A stretch of 64,000 nt of DNA from Natronomonas sp. GTDB taxonomy: Archaea > Halobacteriota > Halobacteria > Halobacteriales > Haloarculaceae. Where the stretch lies: NCBI GenBank assembly GCA_040409725.1, contig JARWGK010000105.1, positions 1,808 to 65,807 of the forward strand. Direction: 5' to 3'. Below are positions 3,614 to 15,446 of this stretch, one piece after another. The notes beneath the pieces are model-generated. The model was not told the origin of the DNA. It saw nothing but the letters and a program-made list of their open reading frames with translations, and did not search any database. A program made the translations under genes and the position numbers. The first letter of the stretch is position 1. Each line of letters opens with the position of its first letter.

Positions 3614-6433
3614 ATGTCGGACACGCCGGCGACAACGGAGACGGCCGAGGACCCGCCGCTGGGAGCGACGCTTCTCGCCGGCGTGATCGCAGCCATCATC
3701 GTCGTTCCGGTCCTGTGGGTCGCGGTCGTCGCGGCCAGCGTCGATCCGGGTCGGGCCGCGGAACTGCTGTTCCGAGAAAAGACCCTCGGAATTCTGTCGA
3801 ATACCCTCGCCCTCGTCGTCGGTGTCACGGTTCTTTCGGTGCTCATCTCGGTGCCGCTTGCGTGTCTCACCGAACTCACGGACCTGCCGTACCGACGCTT
3901 CTGGGCCGTCGTCGTCGCGCTGCCGCTCGTCGTCCCGAGCTACATCGGCGCGTTTTCCTACATTTCCGTGTGGGGTCCACAGGGAGAGATACAGACGCTT
4001 CTGGAACCGTTCGGTGTCGAGTCACTGCCGGAAATCTACGGCCTCGGCGGAGCTATATTCATCCTCGCGCTGTACAACTACCCCTACGTCTACATCACGA
4101 CGCGGGCCGGACTGCGATCGTTCGACAAGACGTATCTGGACGCCGCCCGTTCGCTGGACGAACGCGCCTGGCGTGGCTTTTTCCGGTCCGTCCTGCCGTT
4201 CGTTCGCCCGGCGATCGCCTCCGGGGCGTTGCTCGTCGCGCTGTATGCCGTCGGTGACTTCGGAACGCCGTCGATGCTCCAACTGGACGTGTTCGCTCGG
4301 GTGATCTACGTCGAGTACAACGCCTTCGGACAGGAGTACGCCTCATTGCTTGCGATGCATCTGGTCGTCATTGCGCTGCTCGTCCTCGCCATCGAATCCA
4401 GCGTCCGCGGTGACGACACCCTCCACGGCAGCGCCCGGGGCAGTTCCCGCGAGTACGTCCTCGAACTCGGTCGCTGGAAGTACGCTGCTGTCGCTGGATG
4501 TGGACTCCTCGTCGCGGTGAGTCTCCTGTTTCCGGTTGGGGTGTTGCTGATGTGGCTGTTCAGAACGCCGGACGTGTACGCGCCGACGCTCGCCTTCGAT
4601 TGGTCGTATGCGATCAACTCGGTGACGGTGTCTGCGGCTGCTGCAGTCGTCGCCGCCCTCGCTGCGATTCCGGTTGCCTACCTCTCGGCGCGGTACTCCT
4701 CGCGGCTCGTCGCGCTGTTCGAGCGGGCGACGTACATCGGCTACGCCGTTCCGGGTGTCGTCATCGGGTTGAGCCTCATCTATTTCAGCACCCGCTATGC
4801 GGCGTTTGCCTACCAGACGCTCCCGCTCGTCGTCTTTGCCTACGTCGTGTTGTATCTGCCACAGGCAGTCGGTGCGACCAGAACTGGCGTGTTACACGTC
4901 AATCCGCGGCTCGTGGAAGCGGCCCGCTCTCTCGGCTGTTCGCCGCTTCGGGCGTTTCGACACGTCGTGTTACCGCTCATCGTTCCCGGACTCATCGCCG
5001 GTGCAGCACTCGTTTTCCTGACCGCGATGAAGGAACTGCCCGCGACGCTGCTGCTTGGACCTGCTGGATTCGAGACGCTTGCGACGTTCATCTGGCGGAT
5101 CGAACGCAGCATGCTGTACGGCTTTGCGGCCGTTCCTGCCCTCGTGTTGATCTGTGTCTCTGGGCTGTCGATGCTCGTCGTCGTCTTCCGTGATCGCTAC
5201 GACCGCCGCGGAACGATCAGCGGATCGATCCAGTTCGACGACGAGGAACTGGACGTCTCTGAACCGACCGCCACAGACGGCGGAACGACGACCGGTGCCG
5301 GTCGCTCCGACTCGAATTTCTCTCCCTCTGCCGGTGGATTTGCGGCGTTCGAAGACGACACACACAAATCCACTGGAGTGAACGACAGTGATGTGGTCCT
5401 GACACTCGACGGCGTGGGAAAATCCTTCGGCGAGACCGCCGCAGTCGAGGCGTTCTCGATCGATGTCGAGGAGGGTGAACTGTTGACCCTCGTCGGTCCC
5501 TCCGGCTGTGGGAAAACGACGACACTCCGGCTGATCGCCGGATTGGAGTCTCCTGACGCCGGCGAGATACAGATCGGCGGTGAGACCGTCGCAACCGAGG
5601 AGTTCTCCCGATCGATCGAGGACCGAAACGTCGGAATCGTCTTCCAGGATTTTGCGCTGTTTCCACACAAAACCGTCGCCGAAAACATCGCCTTCGGACT
5701 GTACAACGTCGACGACGACGAGCGCAATCGACGCGTCGCGGAGTTACTCGAGACTGTCGGGCTTTCGGGGTACGAGGACACCTATCCGGCGTCGCTGTCG
5801 GGCGGGCAGAAACAGCGCGTCGCACTGGCGCGCTCACTCGCCCCCGAGCCGGACGTGCTTCTGCTCGATGAACCGCTGTCGAACCTCGACGTCGGCCTGC
5901 GGGTGGAGATGCGAGAGGCCGTCAGATCCATCCTCGGGGACGTCGGCGTCACCGCGGTGTGGGTCACTCACGACCAAGAAGAGGCGCTGTCGATCGGCGA
6001 CCGCGTCGGGGTGATGTCCGACGGCGAACTCAGACAGGTCGGATCGCCGGACGACGTGTTCCTCCGCCCTGCCTCACGAACGGTCGCGGACTTCCTCGGG
6101 GAGGCGAGTTTCCTCACCGGTGAGATCCGCGGCGGGACAGCCGAGACGCCGATCGGACCGATCGACACCGATCGGTTGCTCGGTCCGACGGCCGGTTCGG
6201 TCGATATCCTGCTCCGCCCGGACGATATCGAACTGGAACCCACCGATTCCGCGGCCGCCGACGGCCGAATCGTCTACCGCCGATTCAACGGCCCGACGGT
6301 CAGCTACCGGATCGAACTTTCCGATGGGACCCAACTCGGCTGCACCCGCCCCCACGACCGAATTCTCGATTACGGGACGCCGGTGTCGATCGAGGTCGTC
6401 GCCGAACACGAGTTGCGATCGTTCTCCCGATAG
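3614..6433 (+). CDS. fused ABC transporter permease (two BPD_transp_1 repeats) plus ATP-binding domain, FbpB/FbpC-like
   Basis: Two EAA loops (YLDAARSL, LVEAARSLG), about 12 TM segments, then Walker A GPSGCGKT, LSGGQ, Walker B LLLDE, H-loop VTHD and a TOBE-like tail in one 939-aa ORF. Confidence 0.9.
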   Translation: MSDTPATTETAEDPPLGATLLAGVIAAIIVVPVLWVAVVAASVDPGRAAELLFREKTLGILSNTLALVVGVTVLSVLISVPLACLTELTDLPYRRFWAVVVALPLVVPSYIGAFSYISVWGPQGEIQTLLEPFGVESLPEIYGLGGAIFILALYNYPYVYITTRAGLRSFDKTYLDAARSLDERAWRGFFRSVLPFVRPAIASGALLVALYAVGDFGTPSMLQLDVFARVIYVEYNAFGQEYASLLAMHLVVIALLVLAIESSVRGDDTLHGSARGSSREYVLELGRWKYAAVAGCGLLVAVSLLFPVGVLLMWLFRTPDVYAPTLAFDWSYAINSVTVSAAAAVVAALAAIPVAYLSARYSSRLVALFERATYIGYAVPGVVIGLSLIYFSTRYAAFAYQTLPLVVFAYVVLYLPQAVGATRTGVLHVNPRLVEAARSLGCSPLRAFRHVVLPLIVPGLIAGAALVFLTAMKELPATLLLGPAGFETLATFIWRIERSMLYGFAAVPALVLICVSGLSMLVVVFRDRYDRRGTISGSIQFDDEELDVSEPTATDGGTTTGAGRSDSNFSPSAGGFAAFEDDTHKSTGVNDSDVVLTLDGVGKSFGETAAVEAFSIDVEEGELLTLVGPSGCGKTTTLRLIAGLESPDAGEIQIGGETVATEEFSRSIEDRNVGIVFQDFALFPHKTVAENIAFGLYNVDDDERNRRVAELLETVGLSGYEDTYPASLSGGQKQRVALARSLAPEPDVLLLDEPLSNLDVGLRVEMREAVRSILGDVGVTAVWVTHDQEEALSIGDRVGVMSDGELRQVGSPDDVFLRPASRTVADFLGEASFLTGEIRGGTAETPIGPIDTDRLLGPTAGSVDILLRPDDIELEPTDSAAADGRIVYRRFNGPTVSYRIELSDGTQLGCTRPHDRILDYGTPVSIEVVAEHELRSFSR

Positions 6434-6529: not shown

Positions 6530-8059
6530 ATGCCAGTTTCGACTGGCAGCCCCACGCTCGATTCGATTCTCGACGGCGGACTGCCAGAGCAGCGAACAGT
6601 ATTGGTTTCGGGGACACCGGGAACGGGGAAATCGACGCTTGCGATGGGTTTCCTGCAGGCCGGAGTCAAGGAGGGTGATGAGTGTATCTACATCAGCACC
6701 GAACAGACGAGCGACGAACTGCGGGATTCGTTCGCGCCGTTCGATTTCGACCTCGATGCGGACAATCTCCGGGTTACGTCGCTGCATCCCCGTCCCGGAC
6801 AGGGCACCGATCAGTACGAAAGCGGCGACGTCACGCGACGCTACCGGAGTGACCGCGGGGGTGACGGGGGCGGGTCCGGTAGTGGCTACGTCCTACGGAC
6901 ACTCGAAGGTGACGCCGACATCGACGACCGGGAAATCGACTTCACCCCGGAGAATCTCCGGCAGTACCTCCAGAACAACACCAACTGTGACCGGGTCGTC
7001 ATCGACAGCGTCTCCGGACTGCAGGCGATTGCGACACGGGAGGGACAGTACAGACGGGTCGTCCTCGATCTGATCCAGACGTTCAACAGCGACATCGGTG
7101 CAACGGCGCTGTTTACGACCGAATCCTCGGGAACCCACGCCAGGGCCGAAGGGGCCGAACAGCTCGGGACGGACGATCTGGTCCAGTACCACGTCCACGG
7201 CGTGATCCGGCTGTGGCGACAGCGCGTCAAAGGGAGCTACCAGCGGTATCTGGACGTGATGAAGATGCGCGGGGTGAACCACGACACCCGCAGTTTCATG
7301 ATCGCCTTCGCCGACGACGGCCTGCGTGTGTTCCCGAAACGGCGGAGCCACGGCGAGATGTTCGTCGTCGGCGGGAAGCTGCCGACCGGCATGCCGAGTC
7401 TCGATTCCCTTCTCGACGGCGGCCTCATCAAAGGCGGTGGCGTCACACTCGAACACGACGGCAACGCCGGCATCGAGCTCTTCCTGTACACCGGACTGTC
7501 GAGTACGCTCGATGAGATGATGTCTCTCGTTCTCGTCCCGCGGGTCGACACGCCCGATGAGTTCCCACAGGCCGTCCTCGACCGCTTCGGCGTGTCACTC
7601 TCCTCGCTTTTGGACAACAATCAGCTGTTCATCCTCGATCCCTTCGGATCGAGACCGCCACACGAGAACATCTACGACCTCAGCGACGAGGACACCGACC
7701 CGAGGGCGGCAGTAAAAGACATCAACACGAAAGCCCGCGGAAAGGGGATCATGTACGCAAAACACACCGACGCCATGGTCCAGTCCCTCGGTGAGGACAA
7801 CGCACGGGCGTTTCGGTACTGGCTTCAGACCAACCAGGTCAGCGGGAACGACATCATCTTCGACATCCACAATCCCAACCTCATGAGCGACGAGGTTGGT
7901 TCCTTCTATCTCGATTCCTCGGCACAGATCATCGACACCTGGGTCGAAAACGACGGCATCCAGTACCTGCAGTTGAAGAAGAGTCCGAGCGGCGACGTCG
8001 GATCGGTCCGGGTGGTAGAGTATATCAACGAGCCGCCGTTTGCCCGGCTGGTGTCCTGA
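6530..8059 (+). CDS. KaiC/RAD55-family tandem-domain ATPase (second domain degenerate)
   Basis: STGSPTLDSILDGG, Walker A GTPGTGKST, YISTEQ, Walker B RVVIDS, KMRG finger; the second TGMPSLDSLLDGG domain lacks a canonical Walker A. Confidence 0.88.
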   Translation: MPVSTGSPTLDSILDGGLPEQRTVLVSGTPGTGKSTLAMGFLQAGVKEGDECIYISTEQTSDELRDSFAPFDFDLDADNLRVTSLHPRPGQGTDQYESGDVTRRYRSDRGGDGGGSGSGYVLRTLEGDADIDDREIDFTPENLRQYLQNNTNCDRVVIDSVSGLQAIATREGQYRRVVLDLIQTFNSDIGATALFTTESSGTHARAEGAEQLGTDDLVQYHVHGVIRLWRQRVKGSYQRYLDVMKMRGVNHDTRSFMIAFADDGLRVFPKRRSHGEMFVVGGKLPTGMPSLDSLLDGGLIKGGGVTLEHDGNAGIELFLYTGLSSTLDEMMSLVLVPRVDTPDEFPQAVLDRFGVSLSSLLDNNQLFILDPFGSRPPHENIYDLSDEDTDPRAAVKDINTKARGKGIMYAKHTDAMVQSLGEDNARAFRYWLQTNQVSGNDIIFDIHNPNLMSDEVGSFYLDSSAQIIDTWVENDGIQYLQLKKSPSGDVGSVRVVEYINEPPFARLVS

Positions 8060-8205
8060 CAATGGGGACCCATCTGTAGCCCCCAGATACCCATACCGGA
8101 CGGACTGTAGATAGTAATCGGACCCGAACCAATCGAGGAGGCCACAGAAACAATCGACGAACTGGACGACCTACAACCGGATCTGTGGGACTGACTCCCT
8201 GTCGT

Positions 8206-8718
8206 TCACATCGATTTGATCGCCTGCTGGATGTGGTTGATTTCCGGTGATTCGAAGTTGTCATCGGCCTGCCACGCGTAGTTGATTATTCCATCTGCGG
8301 AGACGAGATACACCGACCGCTGTGGCATCCCCGGAATGCCGTTTACGTCCATCTCCTGTCTCGGGAGGTCCTCGACGGTCGCATCGGTTTCGAGGGCGTC
8401 GTAGGCCGCACAGGCCTCGCCCTCGACGTCGGACAGAAGCGGGTAACCGAGGTCGTTGTCCTCGGCGAACTTTTTGTGGCTGAACGGGCCGTCGCGGCTG
8501 ATGCCCCAGATTTCGAGGTTCGTCTTGTACTGGAACCAGTTTGCGTCCTGATAGTCACACATCTGTGTGGAACACACCGGCGAGAAGTCGGCATAGTAGA
8601 ACGTCAAAAGCACACTCTTTCCATCCTCGAGGACATCGGACAGCCGGTACGTGTCGAACTTCCCACCCTGATAGCCACGGAGGGCAAAATCCGGGGCCTC
8701 GTCGCCTTTATTGAGCAT
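8206..8718 (-). CDS. peroxiredoxin-like redoxin (BCP/PrxQ type)
   Basis: GDEAPDFAL, FYYADFSPVCSTQMC, GISRDGPFSHKKFA, YPLLSD, QRSVYLV. Confidence 0.85.
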   Translation of the reverse strand: MLNKGDEAPDFALRGYQGGKFDTYRLSDVLEDGKSVLLTFYYADFSPVCSTQMCDYQDANWFQYKTNLEIWGISRDGPFSHKKFAEDNDLGYPLLSDVEGEACAAYDALETDATVEDLPRQEMDVNGIPGMPQRSVYLVSADGIINYAWQADDNFESPEINHIQQAIKSM

Positions 8719-8868
8719 TCAATTTGTTTCTGTACTCCTGTTAATATATTTTTACCGGGGACCACAGCGGGATCCCCGCAGAGGCTGTGGCCACATCGGG
8801 CCGAATTCGAGGCCAGCAGCTATATGTATCTCTGATGTTACGGTCGCGTACACAGGTACCGACACGGC

Positions 8869-9558
8869 ATGGACGGGTATTTCAACACGAAGAGTCCGGA
8901 ACTCGACGAACTCCTCGGCGGCGGCGTCCTCTACGGCGAAGGGACTCTGATCAAGTATCACGCCGACGGAGCCGCAGACGGCCTCTTCGTCAACGCCGGC
9001 ATCGACGTCGTCGACAACATGCTGACCGCCGTGTTGCTCCCGAGACAGTCGCTCTCGCCAACGGAACTCGAGAAGTATCTCGAGATGCTGGGTGCCTCAC
9101 TCGATGCGCTCCTCGAACACAACCAACTTTTCGTCCTCGACACCGAAGATCGGTGGGAGGAGCGAAAGAATGTCTTCCACGTCGAGACGCTTACCGACAT
9201 CCAGACGGCGACGGAGACGGCACTCGAACGCTCACGCGCCCGTGGCACCGTTCATATGTCCGACGTGGGTGCAGTCGAAGCCGCCATCGGTGCCGCCGAC
9301 GCTCGGACGCTGCGGCGGTGGTACCAGACCGACTGCTTCCGCGGCGACCGGGATTTTCTCCTGGAGGGTGCCCCCGTCCACCGGCTTCCCGACGACCTGA
9401 TCGAGTTCTACGAATCGATGGACAGACAGGTGCTCGACGTCGAACAGACCACAGGTGGCGACCTCCGGTTGACGATCGAGGCCGCTCCAGACGGGGCTGT
9501 CGGGGCGACCCGAACGCTACAGTTCAGCACCGAACGGCCATTCGTCCGGATCCTCTGA
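8869..9558 (+). CDS. single degenerate KaiC/RAD55-like domain protein
   Basis: TKSPELDELLGGG start, NQLFVLD and ARTLRRWYQT match the C-terminal domain of 6530-8059; no Walker A lysine. Confidence 0.75.
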   Translation: MDGYFNTKSPELDELLGGGVLYGEGTLIKYHADGAADGLFVNAGIDVVDNMLTAVLLPRQSLSPTELEKYLEMLGASLDALLEHNQLFVLDTEDRWEERKNVFHVETLTDIQTATETALERSRARGTVHMSDVGAVEAAIGAADARTLRRWYQTDCFRGDRDFLLEGAPVHRLPDDLIEFYESMDRQVLDVEQTTGGDLRLTIEAAPDGAVGATRTLQFSTERPFVRIL

Positions 9559-13449: not shown

Positions 13450-13485
13450 GGTCAGTCCGTTGCGGGCGGTCAGTCCGTTGTGGGC
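13450..13485. repeat. 18-bp tandem duplication spanning the histidine kinase stop codon
   Basis: ggtcagtccgttgcgggc (13450-13467) followed by ggtcagtccgttgtgggc (13468-13485), 1 mismatch. Confidence 0.7.
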
Positions 13486-15446
13486 GGTCGGTTCGTGCCG
13501 GGTTCTGTCACCCGAACCGTGCGCTCGTCGTCCCGGATCTCGAAGCGAGCCCCACCGTCTCGGCCGTCGGTTACGGTTATCTGCCAGCCGTGGGCCTCGA
13601 CGATCTCCTCGACGATCGCCAGTCCGAAGCCGGTTCCCTGTTCTGCGGTGGTGTAGCCCGACTCGAACACCTGGTTTCGGTCTTCCGGTGGGATCCCGGG
13701 TCCGTCGTCCTCGACGTAGAACCCGTCCTCCAGATCGCCGACCCGAACGACCACCGAGGAAACCTCGTCCTCGTCGTCACCTTCGGCCTCCGGCCGATTG
13801 CTCGTGGAGCTGTGCTCCACGCTGTCACCGGGAGCGTCAGCGACCGGTGGCTCGGAAGAGCTTGCTCTTCCGGTGTCGTCGGACTTCGTCCGACTATTCG
13901 TCGAACTATGTTCGACGCTATTCCGATACAGATTCTCGAACAGCTCCTTGATGCGGCTCGGGTCTGCGTGGACCGTTCCGCTCGCGGTGATTTCGATCTG
14001 TGCCCCGTCTGTGGCGACGTTTTGCCACGTCGATTCGGCGACACCGCGGAGCCCGACCGTCTCGCGTTCGTCGACGGTCTCGCCCTGTCTCGCCAGCCTG
14101 AGGAGGTCTTCGAGCAGCTCCTCCATTCGATCGAGCGCCGACACCGCTTCGGCCAGCTCCTCGCCCTCGAAGTCGGCCTGTGCCAACTCGACGTACCCGC
14201 GGGCGACGTTCAGCGGATTTCGCAGGTCGTGGCTGACGATGCTCGTAAACTCCTCGAGTCGGTCCCGTTCCCGACGGAGCTGCCAGTACTGCTCTTCTTC
14301 CTTCCCCACGTCGACGACCGTTCCGATCACCGCCGGTTCGCCTTCGAGTTCGATCCCCCGGCCGAGGAGTTCGACGTTGATCGTCTCGCCGTCGGGCGTC
14401 ACCGCGATGTACGGCTGCCGGATCGATTCGGCGTCGCCGCCTTCGACCTGCCGGAGGTTTTCTGCGAGCCGATCCCGATCGGCCGGCTCGACGAGTTCGA
14501 GCAGCGACTCCTCGACGAGTTCGTTCGCGGTCGATCGATACCCGAACAGCTCCGCGAAGGGTTCGTTGTGGTAGATGATCGTCTCGTTTCGGGCGATGTA
14601 GATGCCGACGAGATTCTGCTCGACGAGCAGCTGATACCGCTGTTTCGCCTTTGCGAGTGTCCGTTCGCGCTCCTTCCGCTCGGAGATATCGCGGAGCACG
14701 CCGAGTGAACCCTGGAAGCGCTCACCCTCGTACGGCAACACGCCCATGTGGTCCTCACACGGCACCGGAGCACCCTCCTTCGGCTGTATCTCCACCTCGA
14801 AGGTGACGCTATCGGGTCCCGCCTCGGAGAGGATCTCCCCGAGCTTTCTTTCGCCGGTCGCCACAGCATCCGGATCCTTGATGATCGACGGCTTCGACCC
14901 GATGATCTCGCGTCTGTCGTATCCCACGAGGTCGAGAAACGCCTCGTTGACGTACGTGAACCGACCGTCGGTGTCGAGAATGTACACCGGGTCGTCGAGT
15001 GCCTGCAACAGCGTTTTGAATCGATCGCTGTCACGCTCTGCCCGCGCCGTCCGTATGTCGTGTTTGATTCGCTCTGCGACGTATTCGAAGGTTTCCGAGG
15101 TGCCCTTCTGGATGTAACTCGATGCGCCCGCGTTGAGGGCGTCGGCCGCGACCGTCTCATTGCCCTCGCCAGTCAGCAGAATAAACGGTACCGACGCATC
15201 CGGGAACTGCCGACGAAACGTCTGCAGAAATTCGATGCCGTCCGTTCCGGGCATCTGGTAGTCGCTGACGATACAGTCGATTTCCTCCCGCTCGTCGGTG
15301 AGTCGTCTCAGTGCAGCCTCGGCAGTTTGCTCCGTTATCACTTCGAACCGCTCGTCTTCTCGTTCGAGAAATTCCGCAGTGAGTTCGCCAAATTCGGCGT
15401 CGTCGTCGACGTGCAGGATCCGGATCGAGCGACCCATGTTGGACAT
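13470..15446 (-). CDS. hybrid sensor histidine kinase (REC-PAS-PAS-HisKA-HATPase)
   Basis: ILHVDDD/CIVSDYQMP/ILLTG receiver, two PAS-like repeats, H-box SHDLRNPL, N-box ENLYRNSVEH, G boxes VEDDGPGI and GTGFGL. Confidence 0.92.
   Translation of the reverse strand: MSNMGRSIRILHVDDDAEFGELTAEFLEREDERFEVITEQTAEAALRRLTDEREEIDCIVSDYQMPGTDGIEFLQTFRRQFPDASVPFILLTGEGNETVAADALNAGASSYIQKGTSETFEYVAERIKHDIRTARAERDSDRFKTLLQALDDPVYILDTDGRFTYVNEAFLDLVGYDRREIIGSKPSIIKDPDAVATGERKLGEILSEAGPDSVTFEVEIQPKEGAPVPCEDHMGVLPYEGERFQGSLGVLRDISERKERERTLAKAKQRYQLLVEQNLVGIYIARNETIIYHNEPFAELFGYRSTANELVEESLLELVEPADRDRLAENLRQVEGGDAESIRQPYIAVTPDGETINVELLGRGIELEGEPAVIGTVVDVGKEEEQYWQLRRERDRLEEFTSIVSHDLRNPLNVARGYVELAQADFEGEELAEAVSALDRMEELLEDLLRLARQGETVDERETVGLRGVAESTWQNVATDGAQIEITASGTVHADPSRIKELFENLYRNSVEHSSTNSRTKSDDTGRASSSEPPVADAPGDSVEHSSTSNRPEAEGDDEDEVSSVVVRVGDLEDGFYVEDDGPGIPPEDRNQVFESGYTTAEQGTGFGLAIVEEIVEAHGWQITVTDGRDGGARFEIRDDERTVRVTEPGTNRPPTTD

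Follow-up and report, generated by a model that had tools for sequence, protein, structure and literature searches.

A KaiC-like ATPase, a peroxiredoxin and a stand-alone inactivated KaiC domain encoded together in haloarchaea: a candidate redox-sensing module

Three adjacent genes and their predicted products

The window analysed here, a stretch of 64,000 nucleotides, belongs to a metagenome-assembled Natronomonas genome (2.3 Mb in 135 contigs) and contains three adjacent genes, referred to below as the trio, which encode a two-domain KaiC-like ATPase (P0001), a peroxiredoxin (P0002) and a small KaiC-fold protein (P0003). Calling and translation of open reading frames recovered all three with exactly the limits given in a first-pass annotation made from the sequence alone. 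P0002 is convergent with P0001 and divergent from P0003 across a spacer of 150 nt. The features of the locus are as follows.

6530 to 8059, plus strand: P0001, two-domain KaiC-like ATPase, 509 amino acids (open reading frame; PF06745, E 2e-47)
6611 to 6637, plus strand: Walker A motif (P-loop) GTPGTGKST, residues 28-36, in the N-domain of P0001 (sequence)
7373 to 8056, plus strand: predicted inactivated KaiC C-domain of P0001, residues 282-509 (profile alignment, model)
8206 to 8718, minus strand: P0002, PrxQ/BCP-type peroxiredoxin ("type-1" redoxin), 170 amino acids (AhpC-TSA, E 1e-30)
8557 to 8574, minus strand: putative redox-active site C49-STQM-C54 (CxxxxC) within DFSPVCSTQMC of P0002 (sequence)
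8719 to 8868, no strand: divergent intergenic region of 150 nt between P0002 and P0003 (sequence and repeat search)
8869 to 9558, plus strand: P0003, predicted stand-alone inactivated KaiC-fold protein, 229 amino acids (BLASTP, AlphaFold2, Foldseek)

The N-domain of P0001 matches the Pfam KaiC family with 161.8 bits against a gathering cut-off of 26.6, and carries the Walker A motif G28-TPGTGKS-T36, the catalytic residue E58 (followed by Q59) and the Walker B residue D159. Across 50 homologues, G28, P30, G31, G33, K34, T36, E58 and D159 are invariant. Judged by these motifs, it is predicted to be an intact, bona fide KaiC/RecA ATPase domain. The Pfam match is split in two by a Gly/Asp-rich insertion of about 50 residues (…RGGDGGGSGSG…; residues ~86-135, window positions 6785-6934), which is modelled partly with low confidence (predicted local distance difference test, pLDDT, 63-68).

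The second domain of P0001 (residues 282-509) matches Pfam KaiC only faintly (E 0.017), and its family profile aligns with that of the N-domain in hhalign with a probability of 92% (E 8e-7). In this alignment the Walker A motif is faced by LEHDGxA (LEHDGNA in P0001, KYHADGAAD in P0003) and the catalytic STEQ by VPRV in P0001 and LPRQ in P0003, from which it follows that the Walker A lysine and threonine and the catalytic glutamate have been lost in both proteins. The AlphaFold2 model of P0001 (pLDDT 88) shows both domains well folded, with a disordered linker between them; how the domains are oriented towards each other is uncertain (predicted template modelling score, pTM, 0.58). In a Foldseek search, the model aligned with full-length KaiC across some 530 columns (E 2e-29). 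Alignment and model agree in predicting, for the C-domain, a KaiC fold without P-loop and without catalytic glutamate. Such P-loop-less folds are called inactivated KaiC, or "iKaiC", and are recognised as parts of signalling systems (PMC5847659). Homologues of P0001 are common, with more than 2,333 haloarchaeal sequences annotated as "KaiC/GvpD/RAD55 family RecA-like ATPase", and the C-type domain is patchily distributed: sampling of 401 haloarchaeal species genomes from 91 genera found it in 87 genomes and 34 genera.

P0003 as a whole aligned in BLASTP with residues 282-509 of P0001 (29% identity over 230 columns, E 6e-30). Its AlphaFold2 model is of high confidence (pLDDT 93.2, pTM 0.90), and the best Foldseek matches were the KaiC CI domain and full-length KaiC (E 4e-13, template modelling scores 0.70-0.74, 15% identity). 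The homology and the model characterise P0003 as a predicted stand-alone iKaiC, a paralogue of the P0001 C-domain, and support the view that both are catalytically dead KaiC-fold units. The first-pass annotation had described an intact N-terminal ATPase followed by a domain without the Walker A lysine, a 229-residue copy of that domain whose cited motif pairs are all present, and a redoxin between the two genes, divergent from the short one; all of this held. A Pfam scan assigned P0003 to no family. Three degenerate KaiC-like families were tried and rejected: MEDS, the only Pfam match (E 0.046), DUF7125 (PF23442; hhalign probability 35%, over only 28 columns) and DUF7504 (probability 1%). A genuine stand-alone DUF7125 protein is encoded elsewhere in this genome (C38:152-769, a frame of 216 amino acids, 287 bits), and in loci L015 and L085 the operons of redoxin and KaiC-like genes likewise have DUF7125 genes at their flanks.

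Eight orthologues of P0003 share 47-57% identity and 44 invariant columns, including residues that are also invariant in the fused C-domain (G19, D91, R146, R149, F180 and P224), and this conservation implies that the stand-alone gene is maintained by selection. Beyond P0003, the stand-alone form was found in seven clusters at 90% identity, all from metagenome assemblies. A profile search of 1.84 billion representative sequences yielded 87 matches, mostly C-halves of proteins of about 500 amino acids, and added a few stand-alone proteins (P0139-P0142), for a total of about 12 metagenomic lineages. Among 401 haloarchaeal species genomes, a frame of 240 amino acids was found only here, and all other C-type matches lay in frames of at least 402 amino acids. 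The stand-alone proteins formed one clade in a C-domain tree (support 100/100), a topology that indicates a single origin; the branch leading to this clade is long and its position uncertain.

P0002 matches the AhpC/TSA family PF00578 with 106.4 bits against a cut-off of 26, and the Redoxin family with E 3e-13. Its best NCBIfam match is PrxQ, and it falls below the cut-off of this and every other NCBIfam equivalog. As in the atypical 2-Cys enzymes of the PrxQ/BCP type, the AhpC/TSA domain contains two cysteines five residues apart in a CxxxxC arrangement, putatively the peroxidatic and the resolving one, together with a Ser/Thr and an Arg; in P0002 these residues are S46, C49, C54 and the Arg of PQRSVYL. 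Unlike in those enzymes, the Pro of the PxxxT/SxxC motif is replaced by Tyr or Val, the loop preceding the Arg is longer in type-1 redoxins, and the genes are paired with those of iKaiC proteins. Seven redoxins of types 1 and 2 were compared (type 2 is introduced below), and every one retains the signature DFSPVC[ST]xQ[ML]C as well as the Arg that follows it. As far as its motifs tell, P0002 is a putatively active, catalytically intact peroxiredoxin of the PrxQ/BCP type. This genome encodes six further AhpC/TSA paralogues, the closest of them 37% identical to P0002.

The divergent spacer contains TATA-like boxes at 8741-8754, for P0002, and at 8820-8829, for P0003, which may function as promoters; an A/T-rich element of the TTATA type aligns across the orthologous spacers. 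Apart from these A/T-rich TATA-like elements, a conserved operator was looked for in the spacer and none was found. Between the two boxes sits a perfect 7-bp inverted repeat, CCACAGC-N15-GCTGTGG (8762-8768/8784-8790), which the spacer alignment showed not to be conserved in the orthologous spacers.

Conservation of the gene linkage and its context in relatives

To judge whether the trio is more than a local arrangement, we compared the loci at which stand-alone orthologues occur, giving for each the redoxin and the KaiC-like gene found nearby.

Window (P0003): type-1 redoxin, divergent; P0001 adjacent
L015/16 (P0013): type-1 redoxin, 65% identity, divergent; KaiC-like gene 2.5 kb away, with its own type-2 redoxin
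L017/18 and L080, one lineage (P0012): type-1 redoxin, 70-77% identity, divergent; KaiC-like gene about 7 kb away, across pilus genes
L083/84 (P0011): type-1 redoxin, 76% identity over a partial gene, divergent; contig ends before the KaiC-like side
L100 (P0142, 37% identical to P0003): type-1 redoxin, co-directional; KaiC-like gene adjacent, downstream
L082 (P0009): upstream side not visible, type-2 redoxin follows; KaiC-like gene one gene away
L019/20 (P0007): no redoxin, upstream gene encodes a Tat-lipoprotein resembling DsbA; KaiC-like gene adjacent, convergent

The type-1 redoxin gene is the immediate neighbour of the stand-alone gene in five of the six lineages in which the upstream side is visible, and a KaiC-like gene of the P0001 subclade (N-domain 52-62% identical) lies close by in all six lineages with enough flanking sequence (the window, L015, L019/20, L080/81, L082 and L100). 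In L100, the order is redoxin, iKaiC and KaiC-like gene, with gaps of 80 and 44 nt. We estimate the chance of adjacency to a given gene at well below 1%, with about 7 AhpC/TSA genes among about 2,400. The parts of the trio thus recur together and the redoxin gene is no recent lone insertion, two of the points on which the first-pass annotation had made its proposal depend. On this genomic comparison, the trio appears as a conserved module of a small haloarchaeal clade composed mostly of uncultured lineages.

The redoxins at these loci fall into two types. Type-1 redoxins that adjoin stand-alone orthologues share 58-77% identity with P0002 and are monophyletic (99/97); with six clusters, their rarity is similar to that of the stand-alone iKaiC proteins (eight clusters, or about 12 with further representatives). 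Type-2 redoxins, also monophyletic, are 36-42% identical to P0002. In four lineages (L015, L033/34/38, L082 and L085) their genes lie immediately upstream of the KaiC-like gene, at a distance of 2 nt in three of them and of 18 nt in the fourth. In the redoxin tree, both types form one subfamily together with a housekeeping-like paralogue of this genome that lies on contig C45 beside Cdc48 and Lhr-like genes. We considered whether the pair of type-1 redoxin and iKaiC arose as a block duplication of type-2 redoxin and KaiC-like gene; the presence of the C45 paralogue inside the same redoxin clade speaks against this, and the idea is weakened further by the long branch and uncertain position of the stand-alone clade. 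A DsbA/Thioredoxin_4 protein as substitute partner in L019/20 was rejected, since the Tat signal and lipobox of the protein encoded upstream of P0007 make it extracytoplasmic.

In archaea, a gene for a KaiB-like protein of the thioredoxin family often accompanies KaiC-like genes, which are also linked to type IV pilus loci (PMC4858521). The most extensive context was found on a Joint Genome Institute contig of 101 kb from an uncultured haloarchaeon (Ga0207771_100047; L034/L080/L087), in a region of about 20 kb between about 77 and 100 kb. It begins with a histidine kinase (HisKA_7TM), two AhpC genes, HalOD1 and OsmC, followed by PilB, PilC and a pilin; continues with a type-2 redoxin, KaiC-like gene A, a gene for 85 amino acids and KaiC-like gene B; and ends with PilB3, PilC, a pilin-like gene, the divergent pair of type-1 redoxin and stand-alone iKaiC, and a DUF7504-DICT protein. 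In total, the region holds two PilB/PilC pairs, two tandem two-domain KaiC-like genes and five AhpC/TSA genes, and it gives the impression of a pilus locus connected to the sensing of oxidative stress. In such relatives the output of the module is probably directed at type IV pilus genes. On the window's contig, no PilB-type gene was found, and the small accessory frames of the metagenomic loci (85, 62, 83 and 108 amino acids) have no counterparts near the trio.

Directly downstream of stand-alone orthologues lie genes for DUF7504/DUF7090 proteins (L080, 7921-9369; L083, 1307-2221), which constitute another degenerate KaiC-like family; the L080 copy carries a DICT sensory domain as a fusion. 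At these two loci, inactive KaiC-like proteins of several kinds are found clustered.

A candidate redox input and competing explanations

To our knowledge, archaeal KaiC-like ATPases are numerous and thought to be central signalling hubs, and almost none has a known input. Fold assignments, the loss of catalytic residues, an intact redoxin site and a conserved gene linkage are what was observed here. The best-supported reading of them, to which we give somewhat less than an even chance, is that the peroxiredoxins would feed redox information into a KaiC-like signalling ATPase by way of its inactivated KaiC units; in broader terms, the three genes probably form a redox-sensing switch of a kind not described before. 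In the following scheme, both the contacts between the proteins and the way the signal runs are inferred from these observations. Only the N-domain of P0001 would bind and hydrolyse ATP, and P0003 would be a free iKaiC descended from a C-domain of the P0001 type. Peroxide would oxidise the C49/C54 pair of P0002 and thereby change its conformation, and an iKaiC unit would read the redox state of the redoxin by non-covalent binding, comparable to that of KaiB on KaiC. The stand-alone iKaiC would dock on, or compete for, the C-domain ring of a P0001 oligomer, and so tune the ATPase or autophosphorylation activity of the N-domain and hence the output. The dead domain may in this way act as an adaptor or competitor subunit, as the first-pass annotation had suggested. 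Since both redoxin clades partner proteins that contain C-type iKaiC domains, this domain is the likeliest contact surface.

Several observations weigh against this interpretation. L019/20 has no redoxin beside the stand-alone gene, and in none of 28 reference genomes with a two-domain homologue (E<=1e-60) was a redoxin found within 1.5 kb, which confines the link to one subclade. Because the lineages have common ancestors, their counts do not represent independent events. The stand-alone family has no conserved cysteine, and the only one conserved in the two-domain family, C52, is also kept in clades without redoxin. A thiol relay onto the iKaiC proteins is therefore not indicated; with no cysteine conserved specifically alongside the redoxin, any coupling must be non-covalent, and it would be more like KaiB-KaiC binding than a relay of the Orp1-Yap1 type. 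Finally, OsmC and the further AhpC genes on the 101-kb contig would also fit simple antioxidant co-regulation.

This last point leads to the strongest competing explanation, co-regulation without protein contact, in which the redoxins are ordinary antioxidants and the KaiC-like and iKaiC proteins regulate the expression of these or of other genes, as GvpD acts on GvpE, so that simultaneous induction alone would explain why the genes lie together. It would account for the gathering of OsmC, HalOD1, three further AhpC/TSA genes and a histidine kinase within about 20 kb, for the full catalytic motifs of the redoxins, for the housekeeping-like member of their subfamily and for the missing cysteines of the iKaiC proteins. 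Against it stands the 2-nt spacing of type-2 redoxin and KaiC-like gene in three of four lineages, which suggests translational coupling, an arrangement typical of subunits or partners; moreover, each iKaiC-containing unit has a redoxin clade dedicated to it. On balance we regard co-regulation alone as unlikely, while taking it as a serious contender.

The trio might also travel together by horizontal transfer, so that its genes share a history and not a joint function. Consistent with this, it is absent from 33 other Natronomonas genomes, the flanking genes differ at every locus and are not syntenic in congeners, and the G+C fraction drops to 0.57-0.59 over 7500-9500 (the end of P0001, P0002 and P0003), compared with 0.62-0.67 on both sides, a composition compatible with a foreign origin of the module. 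However, no integrase, transposase or repeat boundary was seen next to the trio, and the association has been kept at 37-57% identity through changes of order and orientation (divergent, co-directional, split by pilus genes). An association that outlasts such rearrangement and deep sequence divergence argues for selection on the linkage, and mere hitch-hiking appears improbable to us.

Peroxiredoxin oxidation rhythms have reportedly been observed in Halobacterium, where the protein detected is said to be a typical 2-Cys peroxiredoxin, and the second domain of KaiC carries the phosphorylation sites on which the cyanobacterial oscillator depends. A KaiC timer coupled to a peroxiredoxin, generating or reading daily redox rhythms, would draw on that report and on the light/dark cycling of cir (KaiC-like) transcripts in Haloferax (PMC3941300), but we consider it very improbable, since P0001 lies far below the circadian KaiC equivalogs of NCBIfam (NF006799, 105.9 versus 408 bits; TIGR02655, 69.7 versus 546 bits) and has no second domain able to bind ATP, neither kaiB nor kaiA lies next to it, the redoxin belongs to the PrxQ/BCP type and not to the typical 2-Cys enzymes, and the module is confined to few lineages. 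The circadian reading raised in the first-pass annotation accordingly found no evidence at this locus.

A bolder version of the redox-input reading would have PrxQ-type peroxiredoxins take the place of KaiB, binding an inactivated KaiC ring, whether fused (P0001) or free (P0003), in one redox state only, with local unfolding of the active-site region of the thioredoxin fold on oxidation as the switch. We think this specific version improbable as well. If true, it would provide a direct peroxide input to an archaeal KaiC-like hub, with the free iKaiC serving as decoy or adaptor in a titratable manner; the archaeal KaiC network would thereby gain its first defined link from a sensor to a hub, and this link might control pilus-mediated adhesion under oxidative stress.

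Even short of this, the module points to a specific candidate for the input, peroxide or the thiol redox state, and to a specific candidate for the partner, and the release of an inactive ATPase domain as an independent gene under selection is a possible route to regulatory subunits. The reach of the module is limited, since the lineages that carry it are few and mostly uncultured. Several of its themes are familiar: KaiC-like hubs, inactivated KaiC domains, partners with a thioredoxin fold and neighbouring pilus loci have all been described before. In the searchable literature, whose coverage does not extend to Makarova et al. (2017), we found no catalytically intact peroxiredoxin as dedicated neighbour of a KaiC-like gene, no two parallel redoxin clades and no stand-alone gene derived from a family's own C-domain.

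Comparison with known systems and the surrounding genes

Archaeal KaiC-like ATPases and iKaiC domains have been proposed as hubs of signal transduction (Makarova, Galperin and Koonin 2017, as cited in PMC5847659 and PMC4858521). The trio resembles these hubs in its RecA/KaiC fold and in the combination of an active ATPase domain with P-loop-less derivatives. The known hubs are associated with sensor proteins and type IV pilus loci and often have a KaiB-like partner with thioredoxin fold. Here, in contrast, the thioredoxin-fold neighbour is a PrxQ/BCP peroxiredoxin, predicted to be catalytically intact, and not KaiB, and P0003 is an offshoot of its own family's C-domain, which DUF7125, DUF7504, DUF7090 and MEDS all miss.

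Cyanobacterial KaiC (PDB 2gbl, 7s67) shares the tandem RecA-like domains and is the best structural match for both P0001 and P0003, and its partner KaiB likewise has a thioredoxin fold. The identity is only 15-18%, however, and a second domain without an ATP site implies that P0001 has no autokinase of the CII type. No kaiA is adjacent, and among the neighbours at 1-17 kb no KaiB-like gene was found, the sole gene for a thioredoxin fold being that of the AhpC/TSA redoxin.

ArlH binds the secretion-type ATPase ArlI. Together with the Cir proteins of Haloferax volcanii, it represents the KaiC-like regulators of haloarchaea, which P0001 resembles also in that its homologues adjoin PilB3/PilC in relatives. 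CirA represses archaellum genes (PMC10983859); CirC has two domains, both active, and the other three, CirA, CirB and CirD, are single-domain proteins (PMC3941300). Unlike in the trio, no association with a peroxiredoxin or with a free inactive domain is reported for ArlH or any of CirA-D. GvpD, another haloarchaeal regulator, is similar to P0001 in combining one active RecA-like domain with an inactive second half; P0001 differs in matching the GvpD P-loop model only faintly (20.0 bits against a cut-off of 24, E 7e-4, residues 22-68), and no gvp genes lie near the trio. A role in anti-phage defence was examined with PADLOC and rejected, P0001 giving only a P-loop-level match to mad8 (residues 17-75) and P0002 and P0003 none.

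A second two-domain paralogue is encoded in this genome (C82:23291-24706; L021; 495 amino acids, 41% identical to P0001), with an AhpC/TSA gene about 2.9 kb downstream (C82:27604-28074). In the same paralogue family, genome G016 has an AhpC/TSA gene about 6 kb away, and G002 and G026 have none; this looser link is thus not conserved.

On the downstream side, the trio is followed on the minus strand by an FrhB-like gene and a rhodanese-sulfite-reductase gene. The first-pass annotation had suggested a possible coupling to these sulfur-reduction genes, which the comparison did not bear out: the pair occurs in five other Natronomonas without the trio and with other flanks, and no orthologue of the trio lies beside genes of this type. 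Beyond the sulfite-reductase genes, on the minus strand at 13470-15446, is a gene for a hybrid histidine kinase with the architecture REC-PAS-PAS-HisKA-HATPase, for which no link to the trio was seen. Upstream, the trio is preceded by a gene for a fused ABC permease-ATPase (3614-6433).

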